DNA of 64,000 nucleotides. Source: a virus (taxonomy: Duplodnaviria; Caudoviricetes). Every line of letters starts with the position of its first letter. The first letter of the stretch is position 1. The notes under the pieces are model-generated. The model searched no databases. It was not told the origin of the DNA and saw nothing but the letters and a program-made list of their open reading frames with translations. The position numbers and the translations under genes are program-made. Shown one piece after another: positions 3,219 to 42,494 of the stretch. The DNA is taken from the IMG/VR virus record IMGVR_UViG_3300037419_001546, positions 10,870 through 74,869 of that record; one strand, written 5' to 3'.

Positions 3219-3676
3219 TACTCACCTCCCTCCGGTACCAGCTGGAGCACGAACGCGCGCATATCTGCGCGGCGCTTGTCCTCACGTGCCTGTTGGTGCG
3301 GATATACGGGCCGCGCTGCGGTGGGCGCAGCGGACGAATCAACGCGCAAGATGGCGTAGATCAGCTGAATGAGACGGTCTTCGATGTTGGCCAGCCGGGA
3401 TTCGACCGACCCGAATCCTTCGATCGGCACCACCGGCGCTGTGTCATCGTCTTTCCGCTCGGCGAGCAGCTCGACGATCGCCGGATCCGACAGGTACGCG
3501 GCCTGGCAGTGCGATCCGGTACGCGCACGGAACGTGTCGAGGAATTCGAACAGGGTTCGCCAATCCCTCAGTCCGACAAGCCAATCGTCGAGATCGAGAC
3601 CGAGGACTTCCTGCAGGTCCCAGCGCAGGGCTGCCCCGTAGCCGCCTACGGCGTCGACGAGGCCGGAGTACCCCCC
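3218..3676 (-). CDS. -1 frameshift extension of the tail assembly chaperone (gpGT-like C-terminus)
   Basis: The -1 frame is open from G GGG GGT (3676-3670) to TAG at 3218: YSGLVDAVGGYGAALRWDLQEVLGLDLDDWLVG..., joining the 3218..3433 ORF. Confidence 0.75.
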   Translation of the reverse strand, partial: GGYSGLVDAVGGYGAALRWDLQEVLGLDLDDWLVGLRDWRTLFEFLDTFRARTGSHCQAAYLSDPAIVELLAERKDDDTAPVVPIEGFGSVESRLANIEDRLIQLIYAILRVDSSAAPTAARPVYPHQQAREDKRRADMRAFVLQLVPEGGE

Positions 3677-4104
3677 GGTACATCACCGGCGCCGGGGCCG
3701 AAAAAGTGCTCGAGGATGTGCAGATAGAAGCCGACCAGCACTCGGTCGGCGTCCGGCAGCGGCGTGAACACTGCGATGACGCGGAGGAAGTCCCGTTCGG
3801 GCAGCAGGTTCTGCAGGAACCCCACCACCTGTCCGTGTCGTGAGGTGAGCTCGAGAGTGACTCGGGTCGCCAGGTTCGTCGGCCACTCGATGACGAGCGG
3901 CGGGTCGAACCCATCCTCGGGCCCGAGCGCGAGCGGCAGCTGCGTCGCCACGGGCGTAGCGACATTCAGCCGGGAACCGCGCGCCCGATCACGCAGCGCC
4001 TCGAACGCGGCCACCCGCTGTTCGGTCACAGTCGGTTCAGCCGCGGCCGGCTTCGTCTTCTTCGCCGGCGTCTTCTTCGCGGGCGTCTTCCGTGCGGTGG
4101 TCAA
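3646..4104 (-). CDS. Tail assembly chaperone (gpG-like), phage A
   Basis: Lies between major tail and tape measure; slippery G run near the C-terminus. Confidence 0.8.
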   Translation of the reverse strand: MTTARKTPAKKTPAKKTKPAAAEPTVTEQRVAAFEALRDRARGSRLNVATPVATQLPLALGPEDGFDPPLVIEWPTNLATRVTLELTSRHGQVVGFLQNLLPERDFLRVIAVFTPLPDADRVLVGFYLHILEHFFGPGAGDVPGGTPASSTP

Positions 4105-4127
4105 CGGATTCTCCTGTTTCCCTGGCG

Positions 4128-4163
4128 GTCCTGGCGGAAGCCGCCCCCGCGCTCCGCCAGGAC
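4128..4163 (-). terminator. Hairpin downstream of the major tail gene
   Basis: 11-bp inverted repeat GTCCTGGCGGA/TCCGCCAGGAC. Confidence 0.5.
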
Positions 4164-4188
4164 GGCGCGGGGACGGCGCTCGAAGGGA

Positions 4189-5100
4189 TCAGGAGACGGT
4201 GACCGCGCAGGTGCCGTTCAGGGCGCCGAGGGTGGCCGTGATGTTGGCGGTGCCAGCCGCGACCGCGGTGACCCGGCCGGCGGCATCGACGGTGGCCTTC
4301 GAGGTCGCCGACGAGGCGTAGGTGGCCTCGGCGGTACGGTCGAAGCCGTTGTCGTCGGTAACCGTGAGACGCGCGGTCTGACCCGCCGTCAAGGCCAGGG
4401 TCGGCGGGGTCACGAGGATGGAGGACGGCGCGCTCAGAAACCCGGCATCGTCCGCGATCAGGTCGAAACCGGAACCCGCGACACCGAAGTCGTACACGCC
4501 GCCTTCGGCGCCGAAGTCGTGGTCTTCGAAGATCGTCAGGGTGTTGCCGAGCGGCAGTTCCTTGCCGGACTGGCCGTTCATCGCGCCCCGCTTCGAGGCC
4601 GCGACCTTCGGGAACATGAAGAACGGGTACAGGTCGCCGCTGGGGTTGACGTCCCGCGCGATCAGAAGGGCCGAGTAGTAGAAGACGTTCAGCTCGCTGG
4701 TCTTGCTGACTCGGAAGCCCTTGCCCGGCTGAGCGGAGGCTGCCGCCATCTGCACGTTGTGCCAGATCGACAGGTTGATCTTGCTCCACTCCTGCGCGAT
4801 GTAGTCGATGGTCATCGACTCCCCGGTGGGCACCACGCGTCGCGCCGCCGACGAGCCATAGCCCTCGATCGGGGACGTCTGCAGGTCGGGCGCCAGGCTG
4901 ACCGCGGCGGCCTTCTGGACCTCACCCGCCGTCTGCCATCCGGCCGGCAGGGTCTGGATGACGCCGGACGAATCGCAGATGTCGGTCGGCATGTAGGGCG
5001 CGCCGGGCTGCCATTCGTGCAGGAACAGAGCCCAGTCGAGCGCGGAGAAGACGAGAGAATCGTTCTTGCCCTTCAGGGCGTGATACGTGGTAGCGGGCAT
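4189..5100 (-). CDS. Major tail protein with C-terminal Ig-like (Big_2-type) domain
   Basis: Position; C-terminal ...VTPPTLALTAGQTARLTV...SSATSKATVDAAGRVTAVAAGTANITAT. Confidence 0.85.
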   Translation of the reverse strand: MPATTYHALKGKNDSLVFSALDWALFLHEWQPGAPYMPTDICDSSGVIQTLPAGWQTAGEVQKAAAVSLAPDLQTSPIEGYGSSAARRVVPTGESMTIDYIAQEWSKINLSIWHNVQMAAASAQPGKGFRVSKTSELNVFYYSALLIARDVNPSGDLYPFFMFPKVAASKRGAMNGQSGKELPLGNTLTIFEDHDFGAEGGVYDFGVAGSGFDLIADDAGFLSAPSSILVTPPTLALTAGQTARLTVTDDNGFDRTAEATYASSATSKATVDAAGRVTAVAAGTANITATLGALNGTCAVTVS

Positions 5101-5172
5101 TGTCCGCTCCTTTCGGCATGACGAAACGCCGCGACCCCAACCCCAGGGCGCGGTGTGAAAGTTCGAAAACGG

Positions 5173-5667
5173 TTACAATGGAAGCGATTCGCGGATGGCC
5201 GCGTAATCGGGCAGGTTCTGCGGGAGACGGCACTCGACGTTGAAGGTGGCCGAGACCAGCCTGTGGTCCGGCTCAATTTCGGGCACCTGCTGTGGCCCGT
5301 CCATCTCCTCGATCGAGGCGACCTGGGTGATCGAGCCGTCCTCGCGGCGCACGGGCCCGCCATGCTCGTAGGACAGCAGCATCTGCCGCAGATACTCGAG
5401 CAGCTTCCAGCTGTCGGCACGAGTCGCGGTGATGACGCGCAGCTGCACGGCCGCCGGATCCCAGAGCCCCTCGGAGCTGAGACCACCGCGGTAGATCCAT
5501 GCGACGGGCACCCCGCTGTCGACCAGTGCGAAGTGGTCGTCCAGCAGCCACGTCACCGCGACACCTTGCGGCGTGAGGAGATCCAGGTACTTCTGCACCA
5601 GATCGCACATGACCAGCTCACGGTCCGGCCAGCCGCCCTCGTACCAGTCGGGATACTGGATGCTCAC
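5173..5667 (-). CDS. Tail terminator-like protein
   Basis: Directly upstream of major tail; YPDWYEGGWPDRE N-terminus typical of actinophage tail terminators. Confidence 0.65.
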   Translation of the reverse strand: MSIQYPDWYEGGWPDRELVMCDLVQKYLDLLTPQGVAVTWLLDDHFALVDSGVPVAWIYRGGLSSEGLWDPAAVQLRVITATRADSWKLLEYLRQMLLSYEHGGPVRREDGSITQVASIEEMDGPQQVPEIEPDHRLVSATFNVECRLPQNLPDYAAIRESLPL

Positions 5668-5984
5668 AGCCTGCCCAATCGGTTGAGCACGGTGATCAGA
5701 TCGTGCGCGCCGTGGGTTTGCTCGGTGTCGAACTCGTGCGAGGCACCGTAACCGGCTTCCTCGCCGCCGACGGTCAGCCGAGACACCCAGCGATCCTTCT
5801 TGCGGCCACCGATGAACGTCGAGACCCGCGCCGAACGCGCCAGGCGTCCAGAGCGTTTCGCGACGATCTCACGGTAGATGGCCTGCGCGATCTCACCGCG
5901 CTCGAACATCAGCGACCGCATCTGCGGCCCCTTCGCGATCTCGGTGAGCGCCGGATTCGGATTCGCGGGAATATCGTGCTTCAC
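5664..5984 (-). CDS. Neck/tail-completion protein (HK97 gp10-like)
   Basis: GTG start overlapping the previous stop; ...VAKRSGRLARS...YGASHEFDT motif; synteny. Confidence 0.55.
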   Translation of the reverse strand: MKHDIPANPNPALTEIAKGPQMRSLMFERGEIAQAIYREIVAKRSGRLARSARVSTFIGGRKKDRWVSRLTVGGEEAGYGASHEFDTEQTHGAHDLITVLNRLGRL

Positions 5985-6337
5985 GCGCCGACTCCCTTCA
6001 GCTTCACGATCTTGTAGCCGGGATCCCATCCCGTCATCGGGTGGATCTGGTCCCACTGCGCCGGGCCGATAGGAATCCAGATCTGCGAATCACCCTGCCG
6101 CCGAAGCCGATCGGTCGGCTCGACATCCGAGCCCTTGGGCACGGCAAGGTTGCCGCTCGTCGTCGAGGCGGTGCGGCGGTCGTCATCCCCACGCACAGAT
6201 GCGCCGGACTGGGATTCGGACCAGAACACGGCCTGGTCGATCGTGTGGTGCACCGTGAGCGTCTGGTCACCGACCCGGTCCCGGGTGCCGCGCAGCACTT
6301 CCCACGTCTCGCCGTAGGTGATGCTGATCGGGTTCAC
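5981..6337 (-). CDS. Head-to-tail stopper
   Basis: Synteny; 118 aa beta-rich protein. Confidence 0.6.
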   Translation of the reverse strand: MNPISITYGETWEVLRGTRDRVGDQTLTVHHTIDQAVFWSESQSGASVRGDDDRRTASTTSGNLAVPKGSDVEPTDRLRRQGDSQIWIPIGPAQWDQIHPMTGWDPGYKIVKLKGVGA

Positions 6338-6732
6338 AGTCCCGGCCCGGTCATCGAGACAGCGCCGGAGACATTCACGCCGAGTAGGGACAAGATTGCG
6401 TCGCGCTCCGCGTCGTAGACGAACAGATTGCCATCAGGGTTCCGGAACGCCACCTGGGTGTTGAACGGCCCCATGGTCTGCTGCATCTGCGTAGCGCCCT
6501 CAATGCCGCCACCGGCAGCCAGAGCGCGGCGAACCATGTTGCAGGACAGGATCTTCAAACCCTCGCTCAGCTCAGTATCGTCGACCGCCAGGGTCTCGAT
6601 GTCGCCGTAGGGTTTGAACCAGACCTTCAGCCACCACGCGGCATCACCGAGCAGCACTTCGGCGCGATCCTGCTCCGCCTGGGAGAGGGCGCGCCAGCGT
6701 GCACTGATGTCGGCAGGGGTGGCGAAGGCCAT
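6334..6732 (-). CDS. Head-to-tail adaptor (Gp19/Gp15/Gp42-like)
   Basis: MAFATPADISARWRAL...QTMGPF...NPDGNLFV motif. Confidence 0.75.
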   Translation of the reverse strand: MAFATPADISARWRALSQAEQDRAEVLLGDAAWWLKVWFKPYGDIETLAVDDTELSEGLKILSCNMVRRALAAGGGIEGATQMQQTMGPFNTQVAFRNPDGNLFVYDAERDAILSLLGVNVSGAVSMTGPGL

Positions 6733-6734
6733 GG

Positions 6735-7106
6735 CTACTCCTCCGTCTTGCGGCCGGACTGCCGCGGTGCGGCCTTCTTCGCCGGCGTGGCCTTCTTCGC
6801 CGGTTCCGGCTCGGACTCCGGCTGCGGCTCAGGCTCCGCTTCCAGCTCGGGTTCCGGCTGCGGTTCCGCTTCCGGTTCCGGCTGGGGTTCCGGCTCGGGA
6901 GCGGGCTCCGGCTCCGGCGCGCGTTCCGGCTCGGGCTCCGGCTGCGGCTCAGGCTCCTGGCCCTGCACCACGTTGATCCGGTCGAACCGTTCCAGGAAGT
7001 CCGGATGCACCTCGACGGTGTCCCCGGCGTACGCCAGCCGATGCCGGCCGTCCGGACGCTGATAGGTCATCAGGCCCACGCGGACGGTGCGCTTGGCCGC
7101 ACTCAT
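6735..7106 (-). CDS. Small virion-cluster protein with a Pro/Glu repeat tract
   Basis: [10 protein letters not shown]-type tract of about 50 aa followed by [10 protein letters not shown]. Confidence 0.7.
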
Positions 7107-8011
7107 GCCGCCAGCCCCGTCACCTTCAGCACCGAATACGGCTGGGTGACCGCGAACACGGGCCGGATCGAGGTCTGCACCCAGGTCGACTCGGTGCTCT
7201 CGTCACGCCAGGTGACGGTGCGCAGTTCCTGCTCGAACCGCATCTGGCCGACCATGCCGGCCTCCACCGCGTACGCGGTGCCCGCCGTGACCTGGTTCGA
7301 CGAGATCATCTCGACGTTGTTGTTGGCCAGCACATCCCGCCACCGATCACCGTAGGTGGTCTGGAAGTTGGTCATCTCCTGCGGATTCACGATCCACAGG
7401 TTGTACTCGCCACCCAGCTCGAAGGTGTCGGCCTTCAGCTGCGCCTTCGCGAAGTCGGCCGCCGGCTGGATGTTGTTCGCCGTGGTGGTCAGCGTCAGCC
7501 CCGCGGCATCGGCCCACGACACACCGGTCATCTGCACATCGGAGCCGATCGCGGTGATACTGGCATCCAGCTCGGCGATCGCCCGCCGATGCAGATCCTT
7601 GGTGATCGTGTTGCCCAGCTTCGCGCCCTCGTTCTGGATGACCGAGAGATCGTTGCGGTCGCGGGCCTCGTCGGTGATCCGGAACTTGCCACCGATCTTC
7701 TTGACCAGCGACACCTGCGGCGCCGGCCGATCGAAGGTCACCTCGGGGAACTCGGCGCCCGGCGCGACTTCCTGCACGTTGCGAGTCGCGAACAGGTCGT
7801 TCGCCAGCAGCTGCGTGTACAGCAGCGCACCGCCCGACACCCCACCGGGAGTCGAGAAGATGCGGTTGGCGAAGAACTTCTTCAGCGCGATATCGCTGAT
7901 GTAGGTGTTGATCCGCGTCGGCTGCTGAAGCATCAGGTCGACGGTGATGTTGTTGCCGGAGACGCTGGGCGTGCCGAGCGGGTACTCCTGGCTGTACGCA
8001 GTAGGTGCCAT
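7103..8011 (-). CDS. Major capsid protein, phage A
   Basis: 302 aa after scaffold and decoration genes; VAPGAEFP...[17 protein letters not shown] motif. Confidence 0.85.
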
Positions 8012-8028
8012 GGTCGGTACCTCCTATC

Positions 8029-8412
8029 TCAGGCGCCCGGCAGGGCGACGAAAATGGTGTCGCCGTTGGCGGATGCGGAACTGCAGGCCTTGCCGACGGA
8101 CTTGCCGGAGGCGAGGGTGATGGCCCGGCCGGAGGCGTTGACCTCCACCTCGACGCCCGCGGTGATCGCGGCACCGGCCAGCACCTCGACGACACCGCCG
8201 CGTAGGACGGGCACCGTGGCGCCGGACACCGCGTCGTAGGCGGCGACGCCGAGTGCCTTCGCGCCCGCCGCGGCGGTGGCGCCCTTGAGCATCCCGGTGG
8301 TCGCGTCGGGCGCGGCCGAGATATCGACGAAGGTCTTGCCCGTCACGTTCCCGGTGAGCAGCACAGTGATGTCCTTGCCCGGCCGGAACAGAGGGCGGCT
8401 CTCATTTGCCAT
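8029..8412 (-). CDS. Capsid decoration/cement protein
   Basis: Ala/Gly-rich 127 aa, GVAAYDA...AGAAITAGVEVEVNASGRAI; lies between scaffold and capsid. Confidence 0.7.
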   Translation of the reverse strand: MANESRPLFRPGKDITVLLTGNVTGKTFVDISAAPDATTGMLKGATAAAGAKALGVAAYDAVSGATVPVLRGGVVEVLAGAAITAGVEVEVNASGRAITLASGKSVGKACSSASANGDTIFVALPGA

Positions 8413-8431
8413 GAGCGAGCCTTCCTTTCCG

Positions 8432-9043
8432 TTATGTGCGTGCCCGCGGCATCCAATCCGCGGGATATGAGTTGTCCACCGCGGGCGGTGGGGTGGGCGA
8501 GGCGCCGGGCCTCAGCGACTCCAGCGGCCGATCACTCGGCGGCGCGGGGGCCGGTTCTTTCGCTGCACCGAATCCCTTGGCCGCCAAACGGGCGGCGCGG
8601 GCGTCCAGCTCTTCCGGGGTGCCTGACCCCAGCAAGTCCCAGTCCTCCTCGGGGATGCCGTGTTTCGCGGCCACCCGCAGGAGGGCGTTTTCGGTCCGAC
8701 TCTTGGCCAGATCTTCTTCGAGCTGCGTCGCGCGCTCGGTGGCACGCTGGATATCGGTCTTCTCCGCTTCCAGCTGCTGGTTGTACTTCTCGACGATCGG
8801 CTCGGCATCGCGCAGCTTCGCGCGGTAGCCGGCGGCCTGATTGCGCGCCTTCGCCAGCGCAGCCTTCAGATCCTCGGTCGTCCAGTTCTTCTCGGCGTTC
8901 GGATCGTCCGCTGCGGCCGGCTCGACCGGCTCGGGAGCGGGAGCGGGCGGGGCCACGACGGGTGGCATGTCCGCCGGTGTCGGCGCACCGCCCTGTCCAC
9001 CTGCTCCGGTCTCGATTCCGAGGGGCGCGATGCTGTCGGTCAC
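8432..9043 (-). CDS. Scaffolding protein
   Basis: GTG start after CAGGAGG; coiled coil KARNQAAGYRAKL...EAEKTD; precedes the capsid genes. Confidence 0.75.
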   Translation of the reverse strand: MTDSIAPLGIETGAGGQGGAPTPADMPPVVAPPAPAPEPVEPAAADDPNAEKNWTTEDLKAALAKARNQAAGYRAKLRDAEPIVEKYNQQLEAEKTDIQRATERATQLEEDLAKSRTENALLRVAAKHGIPEEDWDLLGSGTPEELDARAARLAAKGFGAAKEPAPAPPSDRPLESLRPGASPTPPPAVDNSYPADWMPRART

Positions 9044-9085
9044 GTTGTCCTCCTGGGACGTTGGGGCCGCCACCAGGGCGGCCGG

Positions 9086-10096
9086 TTAGAGATACGACTC
9101 GAATCTCTTGATCTGGCGGCGCGTGTACTGCACGGGCTCCGAATCCTCGGACCGGCCTTCGTCCAGCAGGCGGGCCAGCGTGGCTCGCAGGATCGGCAGA
9201 TGGTGCAGCGCCTCGTCCCGTTTGCTCTTCGCCGGTTTCGGCTGCGCCCCCGTCTTTCGCGGTGTCCGGGCGCCTTCCCGCGCCGGGGCAGCTGGGTCGG
9301 TACCGGCGTAGGCGTGGCCGAAGGCCTTCGCCGCTTCCTTGCCGCCGAGTCCGGCTGTCGAGGTAGCCCACAGGTCTTCGAGCCGTTCGTATTCCTCGCG
9401 GCCCTTCCAGTCCTGGCCTTTGCGGACGAGGACGACCTCGCAGTCGCAGTGGTCGTGGTACGTGTCCGCCGCATGTCCACCGCGGAACCGGGCCGCTCGC
9501 TCGCTGGAGTAGACCGGGCCGCGGCTGGCGAGCATCGCGCAGAACGCGCAATTCTCTTCGCCGGTGAGCACCCGCGCCCACCCGATCCGCTCGCCCGCCG
9601 AATCCGCTGTGTCGGTGACCGCTTCGCGGCCGGCCTGCCGGGCGTGGCGGGCCAGTGTCGCGCCCACTCGATCGGCCACCACCCGGGTCACCGCGGGATC
9701 GGTGCGGGTCTTCTCGGTCACCGTCACCCGTACGCGGGACTGCCTACGGGACTGCGGATCCAGCGTCGCTACCTGCGGTGTCCGCTCTCGGACCGTCACT
9801 CGAGCGCGCGGCCGCGGCGAGCTGCTCGCAATCTTCGGCACCTCGACGGTCGGCGCGGTCGCCTCGGCGAGCACCTTCTCGATCGCTTCCACCTTGTACG
9901 GCCGGATCGGCGCCGGCCGGATCATGGGGGCAGTCGCCCGGATGTGTTCCACCGCGGCCTCGTACTCGCGTTGCCGGTGCTGCTGCACGATCGGCAGCAA
10001 TTTCCGCGCCAGAGCGGCGATTTCGGCATCGGTGAGCGGCACGGTGGTCATGCGCCGCCACACCAGCCGCCGCAGCAGCCGGATCAGCGCGTTCAC
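9086..10096 (-). CDS. Capsid maturation/MuF-like minor head protein
   Basis: GWARVLTGEENCAFCAMLASRGPVY...YHDHCDC motif; follows portal. Confidence 0.7.
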   Translation of the reverse strand: MNALIRLLRRLVWRRMTTVPLTDAEIAALARKLLPIVQQHRQREYEAAVEHIRATAPMIRPAPIRPYKVEAIEKVLAEATAPTVEVPKIASSSPRPRARVTVRERTPQVATLDPQSRRQSRVRVTVTEKTRTDPAVTRVVADRVGATLARHARQAGREAVTDTADSAGERIGWARVLTGEENCAFCAMLASRGPVYSSERAARFRGGHAADTYHDHCDCEVVLVRKGQDWKGREEYERLEDLWATSTAGLGGKEAAKAFGHAYAGTDPAAPAREGARTPRKTGAQPKPAKSKRDEALHHLPILRATLARLLDEGRSEDSEPVQYTRRQIKRFESYL

Positions 10097-10099
10097 CGG

Positions 10100-11548
10100 C
10101 TACCCCGCTGAAGCAGGTGCGGCGCCGGCGGGAACGTCGCCGCCGCCGGTCGGCTGGAAATCGCGGCCATCCTGCTCGGCGCGGGCCCGCCGGGCGCGGT
10201 CGACCTTCTCTCGCGTCCAGCCGGGAATGTCTTCCCACAGGATTTCGTCCGGGATGCCGAGCATCTGCGCCAGCTTCCCGAGACCATCCACCACCTGCGC
10301 GAACGAACGGGCGGTCTGGTCGCGCCATTTCACCTCGGACGCGAAGTCCTGCGCGGACACAGCGTCACCGGAGATGTAGGCGCAGGTGCGCAGCATCTGC
10401 TCGTGCGATTCGCCGAGGCTGGTCTCGATCTCACCGGCCTTGCGGTCCTTGCCGGCCTCCAGACCCTCCAGGGTGGCTTCGGAGATATTCGAGATCCCGT
10501 CGATACCGAGGTTCTGGGCGGGCACCTGGCCGATCGCGGCGATGTCGCGCACCGCGTCACCCTTGGCGCCGGTGTAGTTCTTCAGGTCAGTCGCATCGAA
10601 CTGGCCGACCTTGACTTCCTTGTCCTTGAAGAACCAGGTGTCAGAGGCGGCGTGGCGCATTGCCTCGGCCTGATCCCTCGGGATCCAGCCCATGACGTAC
10701 CGTTGCCGGAACGCCGAGTAATACTGGGCGACAAGGCCTTCGAACACCGTCTCGTCAATGCGCTCCTGGATCACCATGAGCGGCTCGATGATGCCGAACA
10801 CTTCTTCACCGTCGAGCAGCATCCGGTCCCGGTACCGCACGATCGGGCACACGCCGACACCATGCGCGCGACCTTCGATGTACTCGAAGTTGCTTGGCCG
10901 CAGGTAGGTCGCTTCCTTCCATCCGAGAGCGGAGTGTGGCACCGACTTCACGCCAATGAAGTGCACATTCTGCTCGTCGTACAGCCGGATCATCGGGCCG
11001 TTCATCTCCATCGCGACGATCGGCCAATCGTCATCGACCGGGCCGCCGGTGCGCGGATCCCACTCCAGCGGCTCGCCGTACAGGGCAGTCATCTGCCGCG
11101 GCGACACACCGCGCAGGTAGACGCCGTTGGATGGGTCGTTCGGCCGCATCGATGGCAGCACCGTCACATACGACACCCCGTACTGCAGCGCGGTGCGGTG
11201 CACGCCGGTCTGGCGGGCGTCGAACTTGTTGCGCTGCCACCACTCCCACGGCGGCGCCGACGTCTGACCAGTGCCGGGCAGATAATCGTCCACCTTCATG
11301 GACTGACCGAAGGTGTCCAGGATCAGCGGCAGGAAGTTCGTCTGCGACTTGCGCGCCAGGCCGACCAGCGGCGACAACGGGCCCTGGAGCTGGGTGCTCG
11401 TCAATCCGCGGATCTCCAGGCACTCCAATGCCCGCTGGCTGGTCCACGGACGCATCGCGACGTCGATCTTGTCCAGCCGTTCGAGCTCGAAGGGCCTCGG
11501 CCCGGACAGCATCTGCCGGACGGCGTCGAGAGCCTGTTCCCGGTTCAC
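10100..11548 (-). CDS. Portal protein, phage A
   Basis: 482 aa after terminase; WQRNKFDARQTGVHRTALQYGVSY motif of SPP1 gp6-like portals. Confidence 0.9.
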   Translation of the reverse strand: MNREQALDAVRQMLSGPRPFELERLDKIDVAMRPWTSQRALECLEIRGLTSTQLQGPLSPLVGLARKSQTNFLPLILDTFGQSMKVDDYLPGTGQTSAPPWEWWQRNKFDARQTGVHRTALQYGVSYVTVLPSMRPNDPSNGVYLRGVSPRQMTALYGEPLEWDPRTGGPVDDDWPIVAMEMNGPMIRLYDEQNVHFIGVKSVPHSALGWKEATYLRPSNFEYIEGRAHGVGVCPIVRYRDRMLLDGEEVFGIIEPLMVIQERIDETVFEGLVAQYYSAFRQRYVMGWIPRDQAEAMRHAASDTWFFKDKEVKVGQFDATDLKNYTGAKGDAVRDIAAIGQVPAQNLGIDGISNISEATLEGLEAGKDRKAGEIETSLGESHEQMLRTCAYISGDAVSAQDFASEVKWRDQTARSFAQVVDGLGKLAQMLGIPDEILWEDIPGWTREKVDRARRARAEQDGRDFQPTGGGDVPAGAAPASAG

Positions 11549-11561
11549 CGATCACCGCCTC

Positions 11562-13346
11562 TCACACGAACATTGCTTCGTAGGTCATCTCCTGGCGCGG
11601 TACCGCCAGCCACATCTGCCGCATCAGTCGCGCACCCACCGCGGCGACCGCGCCGTCGACCTTCTTCGCCGACTCGCGGTGTTCCTTGCCGAGGCCGACA
11701 CCGAACTTGTTCGGCCGGCGCTTCGCGTTGTAGTGGTGCTGGGCGAGGATCTTGTGTCCGTCGTGCCGGAACGCCCGGTCGCTGATGTCGGTCGTGTATC
11801 GTTCGGCAGCCTCGGTGTGCAGCTTCAGGTGGCGCGGGTTGCGCATGTCCCAGATGATCGGGTGGATGAAGTCGCCCGACTTCACCGCTGGCAGTTGCCA
11901 TTCCTGCAGCTGCGCCCACTCATCGCAGTACGGCTCCCAGTATCGTTCGCCGGTCTCGTCGTCGCGCGCGTCGGACGGATCCCACCACAGCCCCAGCACA
12001 TCCCACGTCCCGCAGGACTCGCGCACACGCTGATCGACCGCGGCCCGGCTGACGAGCCAGCGCACCTTGCTGCTCATCCCCGTGGGGCGCTGCCAGATCC
12101 CGGCGTAGAAGACGTTGCCGGTATCGAGGTGGCAGCCGATCAGCGCGGTCGCGTCGTCGGACTTCGAGCCATCCCCGAACAGGAACACCCGATCGCCCGC
12201 CGGCGGCCGCCAGCCTTCGTCCTTGATCGCGTCCCACAACTGCCGAGTCGTCCACGCGTCGGCCGCGGCCAGGCGCTGGTTGTACCACTTGCGTCGGGAC
12301 TCGCTCGGCGGGTTCGACGTGTTCAGGATCGACATCATGATGCGGCCGTTCGGCCGAGTATCCAGCCAGTACGAGTCGCCCTTGATCGACTCCAGCACCG
12401 CCGGCGCATCCTCCGCAGTGAGCGGAGCGTCGGGCGGCGCTTCGAGCGAGTCGTACATCAGGCCGAACTCCAGCGCGCTCGGATCCTCGCCGGTGGTCGC
12501 GTCGTAGGCGTCACGCATCCGCTCGCCCACCGAATCCTCACCGTCGCGGCAGGCGTTGCAGATATCGACCATGCGGGCCGGGGCGTCGATCTCCGACTTC
12601 GCGGCGTTGCCCTCCAGGGCGCCGGCCATCTCGTGGCCCGAGTTCGACGACAGCCAGTTCTGCGTCTCCGCCCGGATCACCAGCGTCGGGCGGCCACCCT
12701 CAATGGTGAGCGGGTTCGATGTCACCGCCTCGATCAGGCGAGTGTCGCCGAGGCCCCAGATCATGAGCTTGCCGATCTGGATCCCGTAGTGCGAGCGCGT
12801 CTCTCGCGGCACCAGGCTCGGGAACAGGCGCATCGTGTTCTTCGTCTGCGCCTCGGCCACCGCGATGATCTGCACCCACGCGTTCGGCTCGTCCCGGCCC
12901 ACCGGCCGGTCGCCGTCCCAGTGGTCGAACGTCACCTCAGCGAAGCACGCGGCCATCGCCAGGCAGGCCGCCAGCGGGTCCTTACCCCAGCCCTTCAGCC
13001 GCTGCAGCACCGCCGAGTGGTGCAGGAAATCGCCGTTCGGGTCGATCGCGAAGAACCACAGGATGAAGCGGGTCTGCTCCGGCGTGAACTGCCACGGCTG
13101 GCCCTTCTTGTCCCGCAACCACTTCCCGCACCAGGCCAGCACCCGCCAGCCGAGCGTGTGCTCCGGCAGGCACCAACCGGTGTCCGGATCCCACTGCCAC
13201 GTCGGGCCGACCTTGACCGGCTCCCACGCCAGGTTCGCAGGCGGCGCAGTGGTGGCCAGCTGGTTCTCGTACCACCGGATGATCTCAGCGAACTCATCCT
13301 CAGCCGAGACGATCAGGGCAGGGCCAGAATTACGCGCTCTGGCCAC
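11562..13346 (-). CDS. Terminase large subunit, phage A
   Basis: QRLKGWGKDP Walker A-like motif; FGDGSKSDDATAL nuclease motif. Confidence 0.92.
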   Translation of the reverse strand: MARARNSGPALIVSAEDEFAEIIRWYENQLATTAPPANLAWEPVKVGPTWQWDPDTGWCLPEHTLGWRVLAWCGKWLRDKKGQPWQFTPEQTRFILWFFAIDPNGDFLHHSAVLQRLKGWGKDPLAACLAMAACFAEVTFDHWDGDRPVGRDEPNAWVQIIAVAEAQTKNTMRLFPSLVPRETRSHYGIQIGKLMIWGLGDTRLIEAVTSNPLTIEGGRPTLVIRAETQNWLSSNSGHEMAGALEGNAAKSEIDAPARMVDICNACRDGEDSVGERMRDAYDATTGEDPSALEFGLMYDSLEAPPDAPLTAEDAPAVLESIKGDSYWLDTRPNGRIMMSILNTSNPPSESRRKWYNQRLAAADAWTTRQLWDAIKDEGWRPPAGDRVFLFGDGSKSDDATALIGCHLDTGNVFYAGIWQRPTGMSSKVRWLVSRAAVDQRVRESCGTWDVLGLWWDPSDARDDETGERYWEPYCDEWAQLQEWQLPAVKSGDFIHPIIWDMRNPRHLKLHTEAAERYTTDISDRAFRHDGHKILAQHHYNAKRRPNKFGVGLGKEHRESAKKVDGAVAAVGARLMRQMWLAVPRQEMTYEAMFV

Positions 13347-13698
13347 GGGTCGCCCACCGCGTATTCGCTGCGGCGCGCGCCTGAGTGCTCCTGGTCTCCT
13401 GCTTCTCGCCGCTCTCGTCCGGCAGCTTCAGTTGCCGCAGCAGCTGCGCGAGCGTCGCACGGTGCTGCCGCAACTCGGTGATCAGCGGATTCACCACACG
13501 CTGACCCATGCTGCCCGGGATCATCACCTTGTCGCCCGCGAGCTCGCGCTCCATCGCGTCGATCAGGTCGACCTCGCGCGCGGCCTCCCGCAGCACACGC
13601 AACTCGTCCGGACGGAGATCCCACCTCCCGACGATGCTGCGCCACAGCGCGGCCCCGGCGGGCTTCAATCCTTTGGGCGGAGCGGGTTTCGATGCCAT
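13330..13698 (-). CDS. Terminase small subunit
   Basis: PPKGLKPAGAALW...GSMGQRVVNPLITELRQHR (P27-like); directly upstream of the large subunit. Confidence 0.8.
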   Translation of the reverse strand: MASKPAPPKGLKPAGAALWRSIVGRWDLRPDELRVLREAAREVDLIDAMERELAGDKVMIPGSMGQRVVNPLITELRQHRATLAQLLRQLKLPDESGEKQETRSTQARAAANTRWATRGQSA

Positions 13699-13779
13699 GT
13701 GACCTCCAGGGTCGTCGACCGCCACCCGGGCGGCTGGCTGAGTCGACGCGAGGCCGACCGGAAAAACAGGAGAGGGTCG

Positions 13780-13862
13780 CACGCAGGATCTGGGGTGCTT
13801 TGTACCCCGCCATGGGGGCGGGGCCGATCGGGGGTCACCCCCCAGGGGTACCGGCTGCGCGC
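13780..13862. other. Possible cos/packaging-initiation region
   Basis: GC-rich palindromic tract (GGGGTCACCCC, GGGGTACC) between HNH and small terminase, where 3'-cos actinophages place their ends; exact site not identifiable. Confidence 0.3.
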
Positions 13863-16123: not shown

Positions 16124-17695
16124 TCAGAACGGCCAGTCGCCGTCGCGGCCGCGCTCCAGCAGCGGGATCATGTCGAAGCCGCGGTCGGACAGGCCGCCGA
16201 AGGTGTGCCGGTACGGGCTGCCTGCGGTGTGCCCCAATCGATATCCGGCGAGGTTCCAGGTGTACAGCGGCACGGTGCCCGGGATCACGGTGCCCGGATC
16301 GCCGTAGCTGGAGTAGCTGGCCTGCTCGTCGGTGAGGATCACGACCCGTGCGTGGCGGTCGTAGGCGGCTCGAGCGACGCCGGCGGTGTTGGTACCGCCA
16401 CCGATGAAGTACCCGCCGGACTTCCACCGTTCCACCGAGCGCAGCAGCGACTCTCCCGGCTCGATCGCGAACCGCAGCCCATCGTTCGAGTACGAGATGA
16501 CGTCGGCGGTCTGGCAGCGGCGAGCGAGCGCCAGCCCGAATACAACCGCGGCGTCCCACCGGCGCAGCGTGCCGTCCTTGGAGAATCCGGCGTTCATCGA
16601 TCCCGAAGTGTCGATGAGGATCAGCGTGCGGCCGTGCAGCTGCGGCACGTTCGCCAGCGACGCGTCGAGCGCCTGCTCGAGCGGGTATGCCCACCGCAGC
16701 GACGGCGCGGCCCGGTAGGCCGACAGGAAGCGCATCGGCAACTGGCGTGACCGGGCGACTTCGTCCGGGTCGGACAGGCGGGCCGCGACGGTGGCCGCGA
16801 CGATGTCGGACACTCCGGCCTGGTCGAAGTTGCGCAAATTCCGCAGCAGCGCCATGTAACCCATCGACGGGATGATCGCTTCCCACCGGGCCGCGGTCCA
16901 CGCGCCGAACGATGACAGCGCCTCCCACGTCATGCCCGCGTCGGCGAGCGCCTGCGGCAGGCTGCCGTCTGCGGCCATCCGGTCGATGTCTTCGCTTGTG
17001 TGCCGCTTGAATTCGGCGTTGGCGCGCAGGGTCGACAGCGTGTCCGGGATGGCGAGGTCGTCGACGCCGATGCGTCGGCCGATGATGTAGTGGTACAGGT
17101 CGGCGATGACCTGCGCACCGCCGGGGTCGGGGTGGGTCAGCTGGATGACGTCAGCGAAGCGGACACCGCGAGTGTCGCTGTCCCACTTCAGGTAGCTGCG
17201 CTCGCGGTAGAGGCGGCGGGCAGCGTCGGCGATGCCGCGCTTGACCGGCTTCGGCAGCTTCCGCCCGTAGTGGGCGTGCCAGTACGACAGCATTTCGCCG
17301 GGCTCGTCGGCGCGCTGCAGGACGGTCTTGATGATGTCGCGGCCGCCGGATTCGCCGGCGTCGAGGCGCGCCTTGGCGGCCTCGGCGGCGAGCACGATCG
17401 GCGCTGAGCGCATGTTCGCTTCGGTGCGCAGCCAGTGCGCGAATCGGGTGAGCCAGTCGAAGTCGGTGAGCGCGACCTGCCGGACGAGAGCAGCGAACCG
17501 GTTGTCCCGGTCGCCGGCCTTCTCGTAGAAGGTGTCTTCGCCGACGAAGTTGGTTACGGCGAGGAGGAAGAGTTCGGACTGTGCGTCACGCGCGTAGCCG
17601 GGTCCACCTTCGAAAGTGGTGGCGGTGGCGGTGGTTTCGGTCCGGATCGGCCCATGCGCGGCAGGGCGGGTGGTGCCGGTTTTGAACTTGGCCAT
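16124..17695 (-). CDS. rsr: Ro60-related protein Rsr (TROVE + vWA domains)
   Basis: TFEGGPGY, ELFLLAV, LQRADEPGE, PKPVKRGIADA, MGYMALLRNLRN, and vWA MIDAS residues DTSGSM / GGTNT / ILTDEQ. Confidence 0.95.
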   Translation of the reverse strand: MAKFKTGTTRPAAHGPIRTETTATATTFEGGPGYARDAQSELFLLAVTNFVGEDTFYEKAGDRDNRFAALVRQVALTDFDWLTRFAHWLRTEANMRSAPIVLAAEAAKARLDAGESGGRDIIKTVLQRADEPGEMLSYWHAHYGRKLPKPVKRGIADAARRLYRERSYLKWDSDTRGVRFADVIQLTHPDPGGAQVIADLYHYIIGRRIGVDDLAIPDTLSTLRANAEFKRHTSEDIDRMAADGSLPQALADAGMTWEALSSFGAWTAARWEAIIPSMGYMALLRNLRNFDQAGVSDIVAATVAARLSDPDEVARSRQLPMRFLSAYRAAPSLRWAYPLEQALDASLANVPQLHGRTLILIDTSGSMNAGFSKDGTLRRWDAAVVFGLALARRCQTADVISYSNDGLRFAIEPGESLLRSVERWKSGGYFIGGGTNTAGVARAAYDRHARVVILTDEQASYSSYGDPGTVIPGTVPLYTWNLAGYRLGHTAGSPYRHTFGGLSDRGFDMIPLLERGRDGDWPF

Positions 17696-17738
17696 GCTGT
17701 CCCCTTGGGTCAGGGGGTGCACGTGTTCGGAGTGTGGC

Positions 17739-17882
17739 GTGAAGGGCCTGAGAAAGAGGTCGACGGAGGCGTTTCGTCATTTGCTCTACCAGCTGAGCTA
17801 CGGACAGTTGCCCGGCGGGACTCGAACCCGCGACACAATGATTAGCAGTGAAGTAACCCCCATCTGCGCACCAGGCCCTCAC
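17739..17882 (-). ncRNA. yrlA: YrlA-like Y RNA #1 (tRNA-like, circularly permuted)
   Basis: Terminal stem AGGGCCTG/CAGGCCCT; GGTGCGCAG...GTTACTTC motif; T arm GCGGGTTCGAGTCCCGC, then a closed acceptor hairpin, then D arm TAGCTCAGCTGGTAGAGCA; directly upstream of rsr. Confidence 0.9.
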
Positions 17883-17887
17883 GCGAG

Positions 17888-18037
17888 GTGCTTACCGCCC
17901 GAGGAATAGTCGGTGGAAGTGACGAGGTGTCCTAGGCCGCTAGACGACGGAAGGCGTGCCCTCCGGCGGGATTCGAACCCGCGTTACCGCTTGTTGAGAG
18001 CGAAGTAACTCCTACCTGCGCACCGGGCGGTATTCAC
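17888..18037 (-). ncRNA. yrlA: YrlA-like Y RNA #2 (permuted tRNA-Glu mimic)
   Basis: Stem TACCGCCCG/CGGGCGGTA; same 5' motif; T arm GCGGGTTCGAATCCCGC; acceptor hairpin CGGAGGG/CCTTCCG; D arm TCGTCTAGCGGCCTAGGAC. Confidence 0.9.
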
Positions 18038-18051
18038 ACTCTGAAGTTGTG

Positions 18052-18126
18052 CTCCCGAGAAATAAGCGCCTGAGGTACGGATCTCATCCCAAATGTGAAG
18101 TAGCCCCAGACTTCCGCACCGGAAGT
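18052..18126 (-). ncRNA. Short Y-RNA-like element #3 without a tRNA domain
   Basis: Nested pairings CTTCCG/CGGGAG, AAGT/GCTT, CTGGGG/CCTCAG; shares GGTGCG...GCTACTTC and the 3' TTTCT bulge with #1 and #2. Confidence 0.65.
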
Positions 18127-18132
18127 GGCTTC

Positions 18133-41229: not shown

Positions 41230-42494
41230 GGGAGCGCCGCCACCAGCTCGGTAGCCATACGCTGATGCCCCAGCCAGCTGGGGTGAATCGTGTCTGTGGT
41301 GTAGTCGGGCCACAGCGCGGTGCTGCTGGTTCCGCGCATCGCGCCCGCGAAATCCACCACGCCGTTGCAGAATCCGGGCTGCGAGCCGATCCAGTCGTTG
41401 TAGGCCAGGCGCACGCTGTCGCCGGTCGACGTCCGGGATATGACGGTGCCCAGATACACGGATCCGGTGAAGCCGTAGGTCGTTTGCAGCCTGCTGACCA
41501 GAGTCCGAACCGACGCCTGTAGCCCCGCCAAGGTCGCGGACGCGCCGAAGATGTCGTTGCTGCCGCCGCAGATCAGCACCTCATCGAGAGTGAATGTGCC
41601 GAGGGCCAGCCGGTCCCAGATGTGCGCGACGCTGGCGTTCGAGAGAGCCGTCGCATAGTCCGAGAGTTTCCAGCCAGCCAACGACATGTTCACGATCAAC
41701 CGGTTCGTCGCGGCGGCCCACAGGTAGACGTTGCCCTTCCACAATGGAGTCGGCACGATGCTCGCCGAAGTGGTTCCCTTCGCGCCGGCGATCGGCTCGA
41801 AGATGCTGTCGCCGATCACCAGGCACACCTTGCGGCGGCTGGTCGTCTGGTACTCGATGATCACGTCGAACGGTACGGAGGTGACAGTGCCGCCCGAACC
41901 GGCGACAGTGGGGTCCGTGGCTGAGGTCGAGTTGGACCAGGTCCACGCCTTCCCGGCGCCGGTCTGCACTGCGGTCGACGATGCGAATGTCCACCCGAAG
42001 GCCACCAGAAACTCGGTGTTCGCGGTGAACAGTCCCGGGCCACTGGTCACCAACGGAGCGTTGTAGTAGGACCCGTCTCCGGGGATCGTCTGATCCGTGG
42101 AGACGATCGTCGTCGCCGTATTGCCCGAGAAGCTGCCCGTCTCCGCGCCGGTGTTGTCGCTGCTCGACGGCGGGCTGTGCAGGCCGACAACCAACTTCTT
42201 GAGTGTGGCAGCGGTTTTCGCCGTCTCGGCCGTATCGCGGTTCCGGATCATCAGACGCCACTGCGTCACATCCACCGGCAGCTTCACTACGAACCGCGTG
42301 CTGCCAGCCGTCCCCGCCGCCAACGATGAGGTGACCGTGCCGCCGAGGCCGCCGTTGCTGTGCCGCAATGTACGGGTGACAGGCGGCCCGCCGTACAGGT
42401 CTTCGATTCCAGCCTCGATGCGGTTGAGCTGGACGGCCGTGATCGGCGTTGCCGTCGACGGCTCGCTCTCCCAGATTGTGCGGGACCACGACAT
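41226..42494 (-). CDS. Tail-associated protein with a C-terminal SGNH/GDSL hydrolase
   Basis: IGDSI, GGSND and DTIHP blocks; N-terminal W.SEPST.TPITA.QLNRIEAGI tail-fibre anchor. Confidence 0.8.
   Translation of the reverse strand: MSWSRTIWESEPSTATPITAVQLNRIEAGIEDLYGGPPVTRTLRHSNGGLGGTVTSSLAAGTAGSTRFVVKLPVDVTQWRLMIRNRDTAETAKTAATLKKLVVGLHSPPSSSDNTGAETGSFSGNTATTIVSTDQTIPGDGSYYNAPLVTSGPGLFTANTEFLVAFGWTFASSTAVQTGAGKAWTWSNSTSATDPTVAGSGGTVTSVPFDVIIEYQTTSRRKVCLVIGDSIFEPIAGAKGTTSASIVPTPLWKGNVYLWAAATNRLIVNMSLAGWKLSDYATALSNASVAHIWDRLALGTFTLDEVLICGGSNDIFGASATLAGLQASVRTLVSRLQTTYGFTGSVYLGTVISRTSTGDSVRLAYNDWIGSQPGFCNGVVDFAGAMRGTSSTALWPDYTTDTIHPSWLGHQRMATELVAALP

Follow-up and report, generated by a model that had tools for sequence, protein, structure and literature searches.

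The window analysed here, 64,000 nucleotides spanning positions 10,870 to 74,869 of the IMG/VR virus record IMGVR_UViG_3300037419_001546, comes from a 74,869-bp contig of 67% G+C whose minus strand holds nearly all of the genes, most of them belonging to phage families. On this strand we found a cluster of three small RNAs, here called Y1, Y2 and Y3, that resemble the Y RNAs known to lie beside Ro60 genes in bacteria and phages, and a Ro60 (Rsr) gene is located directly downstream of them (Table 1). The Ro60 open reading frame comprises 532 codons (16124-17722) and is open up to a GTG at 17722; because its homologues align only from about residue 10, the start codon is likely to be the ATG at 17695-17693, which is preceded by AAGGGGA. 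Y1 ends 46 nt upstream of this ATG and Y2 lies about 200 nt upstream of it, both within the distance of at most 4 kb from a Ro60/TROVE gene, on the same strand, by which YrlA RNAs have been recognized (Chen 2014). An earlier note on this DNA (the original prediction) had described Y1 and Y2 as two YrlA-like RNAs that mimic different tRNAs, keep the heptamers of their anticodon loops and may act as decoys for tRNA-cleaving enzymes; Y3 lies outside the interval that it covered (17739..18037).

Four elements make up Y1: the closing stem, another helix, a sizeable internal loop and a tRNA body in permuted order. Its heptamer, CUGCUAA, sits in the internal loop immediately 5' of the 3' strand of the anticodon stem and is single-stranded, within an unpaired stretch of 16 nt. 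The UACUUC core of the Y1 5'-strand motif is at least 90% conserved in most columns of alignments A1 to A3, and one T is invariant. In Y2, the final bases of the corresponding motif, GGAGUUACUUC, open the stem of an anticodon-like arm. The short Y3 shares the UGCG..AG and GGGGCUACUUCAC motifs with the other two RNAs, and was found by nhmmer in 5 of 146 related loci, each time upstream of Y2. All the strings quoted for Y1 and Y2 in the original prediction are present on the minus strand, including GGUAAC, which falls within 17983-17991.

Table 1. Features of the Ro60/Y RNA locus, in positions of the window.
Feature	Positions	Strand	Evidence or remark
Ro60 (Rsr) gene	16124..17695	minus	Pfam TROVE, E 7.8e-17; weak VWA_2; phrog_850 ('RNA-binding protein'), E 1.6e-52
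Y1, canonical YrlA-type Y RNA	17741..17880	minus	Rfam YrlA match; RNAalifold on 10 homologues
Y1 closing stem	17871-17880 with 17741-17752	minus	
Y1 conserved 5'-strand motif GGGGGUUACUUCA	17849..17861	minus	alignments A1 to A3
Y1 heptamer CUGCUAA	17842..17848	minus	unpaired in RNAalifold consensus
Y1 tRNA body	17777..17841	minus	parser for T arm, acceptor hairpin and D arm
Y1 anticodon-stem 3' strand UCAUU (17837-17841) and variable GUGUC	17832-17841	minus	
Y1 T arm	17815-17831	minus	
Y1 closed 5-bp acceptor hairpin	17801-17814	minus	
Y1 D arm	17782-17800	minus	
Y1 anticodon-stem 5' strand AAUGA	17777-17781	minus	pairs with UCAUU
Y2, Y RNA with tRNA-Glu-derived body and local anticodon-like arm	17895..18030	minus	RNAalifold; partial Rfam YrlA match
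Y2 closing stem	18023-18030 with 17895-17903	minus	
Y2 conserved 5'-strand motif GGAGUUACUUC	18002..18012	minus	alignments A1 to A4
Y2 anticodon-like arm	17987..18003	minus	folding energy; ARAGORN; family-wide support
Y2 arm, 5' strand UCGCU	17999-18003	minus	
Y2 arm, loop CUCAACA	17992-17998	minus	
Y2 arm, 3' strand AGCGG	17987-17991	minus	
Y2 tRNA-Glu-type body	17929..17986	minus	identity to Nocardia tRNA-Glu(UUC)
Y2 variable UAAC	17983-17986	minus	
Y2 T arm	17966-17982	minus	
Y2 closed 7-bp acceptor hairpin, CACG loop	17948-17965	minus	
Y2 D arm	17929-17947	minus	
Y3, short Y RNA without tRNA module	18052..18125	minus	sequence; nhmmer; alignment A1
Y3 closing stem	18119-18125 with 18052-18059	minus	

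When matches are reported by E-value, the best Rfam family for both Y1 and Y2 is YrlA (RF02553). Y1 matches the entire model at 17760-17863 with 47.5 bits (E 2.6e-9), and a part of Y2 (17929-17983) scores 19.2 bits. In both RNAs, the head runs from the T arm through a closed acceptor-like stem-loop to the D arm, with covariation in the relatives, and in both alignments pairing of the 5' and 3' ends into a closing stem is predicted with compensatory changes. The 5'-strand motif reads UGCGCAG in Y1 and Y2 and UGCGGAAG in Y3, the relatives having either UGCGAAG or UGCGCAG. For 10 Y2-type RNAs, RNAalifold predicted the closing stem, second helix, local hairpin, T arm, acceptor hairpin and D arm, with compensatory changes in 19 of 39 pairs; for 10 Y1-type RNAs such changes occurred in 19 of 33 pairs, the long-range stem was predicted and the heptamer region was left unpaired. 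The long-range stem of Y1 shows changes on both sides in 4, 6 and 3 of the 10 sequences, and the pairing UCAUU/AAUGA proposed for Y1 is real and covaries in relatives. By these comparisons, Y1, Y2 and Y3 are a genuine cluster of Y RNAs that belong to a known class, and the Rfam match and the covariation bear out the view of Y1 and Y2 as YrlA-type permuted tRNA mimics.

A search with the Ro60 protein retrieved 107 phage records with identities of at most 47.6%, 66 viral contigs and 80 loci in actinobacterial genomes, including those of Nocardia, Amycolatopsis, Streptomyces, Kitasatospora, Micromonospora and Nonomuraea. In 146 loci, nhmmer matched Y1 127 times, Y2 56 times and Y3 5 times, and almost all of these hits lie immediately upstream of Ro60 on its strand. 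A parser that required a T arm followed by a sealed acceptor hairpin and then a D arm recognized 215 modules in 131 of 147 sources, and the counts given below refer to the 174 unique modules located no more than 1 kb upstream of Ro60. As the tRNA reference we used a single Nocardia genome, which may not be that of the host, with 52 unique tRNA sequences, 43 of them class I. A first MAFFT alignment (A2), anchored on the T arm, had gaps in the loop and was unable to carry one structure line, and the sequences were therefore re-aligned on the 5' motif (A3).

The modules fall into two architectures. In the 'long-range' type (51 unique modules, including Y1), which corresponds to the published YrlA layout, the pentamer that precedes the variable loop is paired with the one following the D arm. 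In the 'local' type (103 unique modules, including Y2), the same pentamer pairs instead with another, located seven bases upstream of it, whose first bases are usually part of the conserved GUUACUUC motif. A perfect 5-bp local stem with a loop of exactly 7 nt is present in 76 of the 174 unique modules, whereas each of the other loop sizes (3-6 and 8-11 nt) is found in 1 to 11 of them, and shuffling the upstream 30 nt 200 times left on average 4.15 modules, and never more than 12, with such a 5-bp/7-nt arm. Like these counts, a motif-anchored MAFFT alignment of 97 rows, comprising all module types from the genome loci and the window, supports the hairpin without depending on any sorting of the modules into types. 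In this alignment, 82.6% of the local-stem cells are able to pair, compared with 63.1% after shuffling (none of 500 shuffles was as high), and the covariation score of the stem is 0.264, compared with 0.084 for shuffled data. Sliding the partner by 1-3 columns lowers the pairing to 37.7-58.2%.

The local arm has the hallmarks of an anticodon arm. Among the 103 local-arm modules, U33 is found in 100, A38 in 95, a purine at position 37 in 89 and a pyrimidine at position 32 in 95, whereas A34 occurs in just two. The hairpin is followed by a variable region of 4-5 nt that is class I-like (UAAC, AGAC, NGGUC), and the acceptor strands are 7 nt long in 96 of these modules. The loop is identical to an anticodon loop of Nocardia in 63 of the 103, compared with an expectation of 19.8 (uniform triplets) or 33.3 (position frequencies) under a null model that keeps the four frame positions and randomizes the triplet (2000 trials). 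When distinct loops are counted once, 13 of 47 match, compared with 5.1-6.9 expected and a trial maximum of 13-14. Taken together, the 5-bp stem and 7-nt loop, U33, the purine at position 37, the class-I variable loop that follows and the identity to real loops argue that the local hairpin is an anticodon arm rather than a variable arm. On this comparative evidence, Y2 is a representative of a common but undescribed Y RNA variant in which the anticodon arm of the parental tRNA has been retained.

As the original prediction held, Y1 and Y2 are derived from different tRNAs, the nearest being elongator tRNA-Met and tRNA-Glu, respectively. Y2 is identical to Nocardia tRNA-Glu(UUC) at 38 of 41 positions (19/20 in the D arm, 3/4 in the variable region and 16/17 in the T arm) and to tRNA-Glu(CUC) at 37 of 41, with the best non-Glu tRNA scoring 0.78, and its body clearly comes from tRNA-Glu, as had been proposed. 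The Lys/Asn-type body assigned to Y1 found no such support: elongator tRNA-Met is the best match with 45 of 51 positions (D arm 17/19, variable region 5/5, T arm 15/17, anticodon stem 8/10), while among the 43 class-I tRNAs of Nocardia those for Lys rank 5 and 8 and that for Asn ranks 18. With the anticodon stem left out, elongator tRNA-Met ties with tRNA-His, and Y1 is best described as having a generic class-I body that is closest to elongator tRNA-Met.

Across the family, we found bodies of the Glu, Gln, Pro and generic types. Those of the GCUC/GAGC (generic) type are ambiguous as to isotype when compared by identity with the 52 Nocardia tRNAs. The distinctive bodies sometimes retain their own loop, as do two modules with Pro-type D arms (UUUGGGA), one of the Gln type (UUCUGGU), and some of the Glu type (CUCUCAA or CUUUCAC). 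In general, the isotype of the best-matching body agrees with that of the loop in 12 of the 63 local-arm modules that have a real loop, and the association between body and loop is modest (251, compared with a null value of 277.9, standard deviation 9.9; 8 of 2000 shuffles were as low).

The heptamers themselves have fared differently from the arm that carries them. For Y2, the original prediction took CUCUCAA as the anticodon loop. This string, equal to the loop of Nocardia tRNA-Glu(CUC), is indeed present at 17994-18000, but it straddles the stem and the loop, two nucleotides out of register, because of a one-base insertion in the 5' strand. The hairpin UCGCU/CUCAACA/AGCGG has a folding energy of -3.7 kcal/mol, as against +5.3 kcal/mol with CUCUCAA as the loop, and CUCAACA occupies the same alignment columns as the loops of the relatives. 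The folded loop of Y2 therefore has as its triplet CAA, which is not a Glu anticodon (YUC), and C at position 37, a combination that no tRNA loop of Nocardia shows. Nor does the proposed retention of anticodon identity hold for the relatives of Y2. The Glu triplet is found in only 4 of the 16 unique modules with Glu-type D arms, which carry nine kinds of triplet: UCC (4), CUC (2), UUC (2), CAU (2), CAC (2), CAA, GCU, GCA and CCC. In these modules, the entropy is 0 at positions 32 and 33, 1.41, 1.55, 1.20 and 1.12 bits at positions 34 to 37 and 0.54 at position 38; with values of 0-0.54 in the T arm, variability within the module peaks at positions 34-37. The three closest copies of Y2, from the window and loci L070 and L069, have identical T arms and the loops CUCAACA, CUUUCAC and CUGCUCA, respectively.

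The heptamer of Y1, CUGCUAA, is the loop of Nocardia tRNA-Ser(GCU) and differs by one change from that of tRNA-Asn. Among ten Y1-type relatives, it appears as CUGUUAA, CAGUUAA (3), UUGCUAA (2) and UUUCUAA and has been shortened by deletion in two, so that just UAA and the bases that follow are kept. The tRNA-Asn loop CUGUUAA accounts for 25 unique modules, which come from 25 loci and many genera, and in 16 modules of a body-defined group it sits on six different T stems; CUGCUAA is found in 13 modules, on Glu-like and generic bodies alike. The original prediction depended on heptamers that would be neither buried nor unconserved: they are not buried, but they are unconserved as anticodons. Thus, selection appears to keep the tRNA shape of the arm, with no sign that it keeps a particular anticodon.

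The heads as a whole are similarly labile. The closest relative of the window, locus L001, encodes a Ro60 protein that is 88% identical to ours (70% in L070 and 68% in L069). In L001 (2119-2500), Y3 is kept, the head of Y2 differs in having a longer acceptor stem, a class II-like D arm and a 7-column gap in place of the loop, and Y1 is reduced to the T arm, with neither the acceptor hairpin nor the D arm. As judged from these loci, Y RNA heads turn over much faster than Ro60 does.

We consider it probable, at about three chances in four, that Y1, Y2 and Y3 are YrlA-class Y RNA partners of the Ro60 protein encoded by a temperate actinobacterial phage, with the anticodon arm being kept for its tRNA shape. 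Each RNA has a closing stem formed by its two ends, and the conserved 5'-strand motif, UGCGCAG followed by GGNGUUACUUC, is the likely handle for Ro60. In Y1, this handle extends the anticodon stem, the former anticodon loop having been opened into the internal loop. In Y2, it is inserted between the D arm and the anticodon stem, at position 26/27, and an entry at this point accounts for the survival of a complete 5-bp/7-nt arm and a 4-nt Glu-type variable loop. Binding of Ro60 by the handle and recognition of the tRNA-shaped head by tRNA enzymes are suggested by published work on relatives: Y RNAs use the 5' strand of their closing helix for binding to Ro60, and YrlA heads are reported to be substrates of TruB and DusA (Chen 2014; PMC4201824). 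A further role of the head may be to link Ro60 with a partner from the host, for instance PNPase, through which the phage could redirect host RNA surveillance or decay. It is because of these published links of the relatives to Ro60, tRNA enzymes and PNPase that a phage Ro60-Y RNA particle seems to us the most likely interpretation.

Several observations weigh against it. Neither RNA reaches the gathering score of RF02553 (69 bits), and nothing in the window scores at the curated Rfam thresholds. The published 5' motif, GNCGAAN0-1G, is approximated by UGCGCAG but not matched. Single-sequence folds are not significantly better than those of shuffled sequences (z of -1.32 and -1.54, and -0.49 for Y3), for which reason we relied on the comparative data, and in all module counts related prophages are treated as independent, so that the counts are upper bounds on the evidence. 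Finally, maintenance of shape does not fully explain the dominance of CUGUUAA and CUGCUAA, the avoidance of A34 and the excess of real loops. We cannot account by drift alone for how common these two heptamers are, and all three features leave room for loop-specific recognition.

Recognition of this kind is central to the strongest alternative, namely that Ro60-bound tRNA look-alikes serve as decoys or competitive inhibitors that soak up host anticodon nucleases or tRNA-targeting toxins and so protect the tRNA pool. The idea is not new in outline, as a related suggestion, that YrlA could be a 'competitive inhibitor' of an anticodon nuclease, was made for Salmonella by Hughes 2020 (PMC7790460). 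It would be consistent with the conserved U-turn frame of the anticodon-like arm, seen in Y2 and in 103 of the 174 unique modules, and with loops that equal real anticodon loops in 63 of 103 cases where the frame-preserving null gives 20-33. The rapid change of triplets between close relatives, with the frame staying in place, is what an arms race could produce; actinobacterial hosts are described as rich in anticodon-loop tRNases, and the tRNAs of their phages as having loop mutations (eLife 2023; PMC10264068). An RNA ligase-like gene also lies 3.8 kb upstream of the Y RNAs. However, no isotype is kept: the 16 Glu-type modules have nine triplets, half of the distinct loops in this group match no real loop and the CAA with C37 of Y2 fits no Nocardia tRNA loop. 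Since the anticodon is not conserved, the loop is lost in the nearest relative, L001, and the heptamer of Y1 is deleted in 2 of 10 relatives, the decoy function has no support from conservation, and we regard it as unlikely. In its most specific form, which we hold to be equally doubtful, Ro60-Y RNA particles would be isotype-switchable baits for tRNA-cleaving defence systems or for other enzymes that read the anticodon loop: the U-turn frame would be fixed, the triplet would be swapped rapidly among those of the Asn, Ser-GCU, Pro, Lys, Glu, Arg and Met types, and the several RNAs of a locus would constitute a panel.

A clearly less probable alternative is that Y2 is processed into a split, possibly chargeable tRNA, its acceptor being opened by RNase P and provided with CCA, and that the nicked molecule engages synthetases, modification enzymes or the ribosome. 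The original prediction excluded direct charging on the grounds that the acceptor is a closed hairpin. The acceptor is indeed closed, but the conclusion was too strong, at least for Y2, because the YrlA of Mycobacterium smegmatis, likewise with a 7-bp acceptor stem, is reported to be cut by RNase P and to receive CCA in vivo (Chen 2014; PMC4201824). The perfect 7-bp acceptor stem of Y2, the 7-nt acceptor strands of 96 of the 103 local-arm modules, the retention in Y2 of the Glu-type D arm and 4-nt variable loop, and the loop CUUCUAA that is implied by our reading of the published 5' probe for the M. smegmatis RNA all agree with such processing. Yet the anticodon of Y2 does not fit its Glu body, the acceptor stem of Y1 has only 5 bp and a large Ro60 handle at position 26/27 would be hard to fit on the ribosome.

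The remaining possibility, that Y RNAs are absent here and the sequences represent a genuine tRNA-Leu(CAA) gene, pseudogenes of tRNAs or scars left by integration into tRNA genes, has ARAGORN's call of tRNA-Leu(CAA) at 17958-18030 and the annotation of similar elements as tRNA-Arg in public phage records in its favour, but is barely credible, given that the order T arm, acceptor, D arm is kept with compensatory changes beside Ro60 across many genera. The tRNA-Leu(CAA) candidate itself was rejected: its acceptor pairs at only 5 of 7 positions and its D arm is poor, whereas the same 3' acceptor strand pairs at 7 of 7 positions with the next downstream strand, which seals the stem, and the D arm then follows. 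This false positive still reads the same anticodon-like hairpin of Y2.

The presence of Y RNAs beside Ro60 in bacteria and phages and their tRNA mimicry were known. Like Y1 and Y2, the YrlA RNAs of Salmonella Typhimurium and other bacteria lie beside Ro60 on the same strand and have a closing stem with a 5'-strand motif and a T-acceptor-D head, and, as in Y1, the handle continues the anticodon stem; they differ from our RNAs in the published motif GNCGAAN0-1G and in that the latter score below the Rfam threshold. The Salmonella YrlA structure is said to lack 'the anticodon loop' (bioRxiv 10.1101/312249), whereas Y2 has a full 5-bp, 7-nt arm. The D and T stems of YrlA were described as nearly invariant (Chen 2014), unlike the Glu, Gln, Pro and generic bodies found here. 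The closest counterpart of Y2 is the M. smegmatis YrlA (Chen 2014; PMC4201824), which is likewise actinobacterial, encoded upstream of Ro60, about 147 nt long and endowed with a 7-bp acceptor stem, and in which the hairpin that by position is the Y2-type one was read as a variable arm. Used as a pattern, the M. smegmatis probe matched none of 401 sampled genomes of the Nocardia family, and the characterized M. smegmatis RNA was therefore not parsed. The Thermus phage phiLo (NAR 2025; PMC12135203) likewise encodes a Ro60, 27.6% identical to that of the window, with Yrl1 and Yrl2 just upstream, and this Ro60 binds both RNAs and the host PNPase; the two RNAs are given a stem-bulge-stem form and a CGAA motif in a description that mentions no tRNA-like head. 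Yrn1 of Deinococcus radiodurans (Chen 2014; PMC4201824) can be drawn with a potential 5-bp 'anticodon arm' but, unlike Y2, has a 6-nt loop, no variable region, no full D arm and a different orientation of the arms, and is considered by its authors to be an independent lineage. The tRNase-evading tRNAs of phages (eLife 2023; PMC10264068) are, similarly, tRNA-shaped RNAs of actinobacterial phages with loops unlike those of the host, but they have free ends and serve in decoding; the text of that paper contains neither 'Y RNA' nor 'decoy'. In the passages that we covered of the literature on Y RNA, Ro60, phages, anticodon nucleases and phage Ro-like proteins, which did not extend to the two main reviews or to the figures of Chen 2014, we found no description of an anticodon arm or of isotype-specific Y RNAs.

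What appears to be new, then, is a common architecture of actinobacterial phages and prophages in which the whole anticodon arm is retained and which earlier had its hairpin read as a variable arm, together with the origin of the tRNA heads from several types of tRNA rather than from one conserved body. A further consequence is that standard tools and public phage records annotate such arms as tRNA genes, which inflates the tRNA counts of phages. Should something read the loops, the role of the tRNA-like domain in Y RNAs could be approached through them concretely and at little cost; otherwise, the family would cleanly exemplify a fossil tRNA that has been retained purely for its shape.

Two annotated phage genomes illustrate the point. 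In the Gordonia phage VanLee, a tRNA-Arg(tct) annotated just upstream of a Ro-like gene (L197:1234-1305) overlaps a Y-RNA module, as does a tRNA-Arg(cct) in the same position in the Streptomyces phage GiJojo (L198:1269-1343), whose Ro gene sits within a tRNA array. Both modules have the Y-RNA motif, T arm, sealed acceptor hairpin and D arm, and the two tRNA-Arg genes are probably mis-annotated pieces of Y RNAs. In addition, records of Xanthomonas and Xylella phages (H1-H12; e.g. LR743528.1, 38025-38113) contain stretches of about 85-90 nt that are 78-81% identical to the heads of Y1 and Y2 and lie mostly within about 1 kb of a Ro60 homologue (0.45-0.75 kb where compared), with no annotated feature there; these stretches are probably unannotated Y RNAs.

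Scanning of positions 17500-18700 revealed no promoter-like site; one site resembled a terminator but is on the wrong strand. Among sequencing runs, a single DNA run, which may be the source of the stretch, and no RNA run was listed as containing it. Between Y3 and Y2, a spacer (18031-18051, minus strand; CACAACUUCAGAGUGUG...) is near-invariant in the window, L001, L070 and L069 though it lies outside the RNA stems, and may be a promoter or a processing signal; a sigma-70 scan found nothing in it. The RNA ligase-like gene upstream of the cluster (21512-22117, minus strand), located between a RusA-like gene and a gene of no assigned function, matches phrog_14301 (E 2.5e-46) and Pfam RLIG1 (28.8 bits, just over the cut-off); such a neighbour fits a theme of RNA repair and proves nothing. 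The record carries two full sets of head and tail genes (window 3646-13782 and 43289-63980), with mutually unrelated terminases, portals and capsids, and bases 1-1006 of the contig are 88% identical to window 41423-42428, within a GDSL lipase-like gene, and the record thus resembles either a tandem of two different phages or a chimeric assembly. At the junction of the two gene sets lies the Ro60/Y RNA block, which adjoins the small-terminase gene. Elsewhere in the window, ARAGORN calls a 93-nt tRNA-Arg(tcg) at 4266-4358 on the plus strand, antisense to the major tail protein gene (4189-5100) and contained in it; this call is most likely a false positive.

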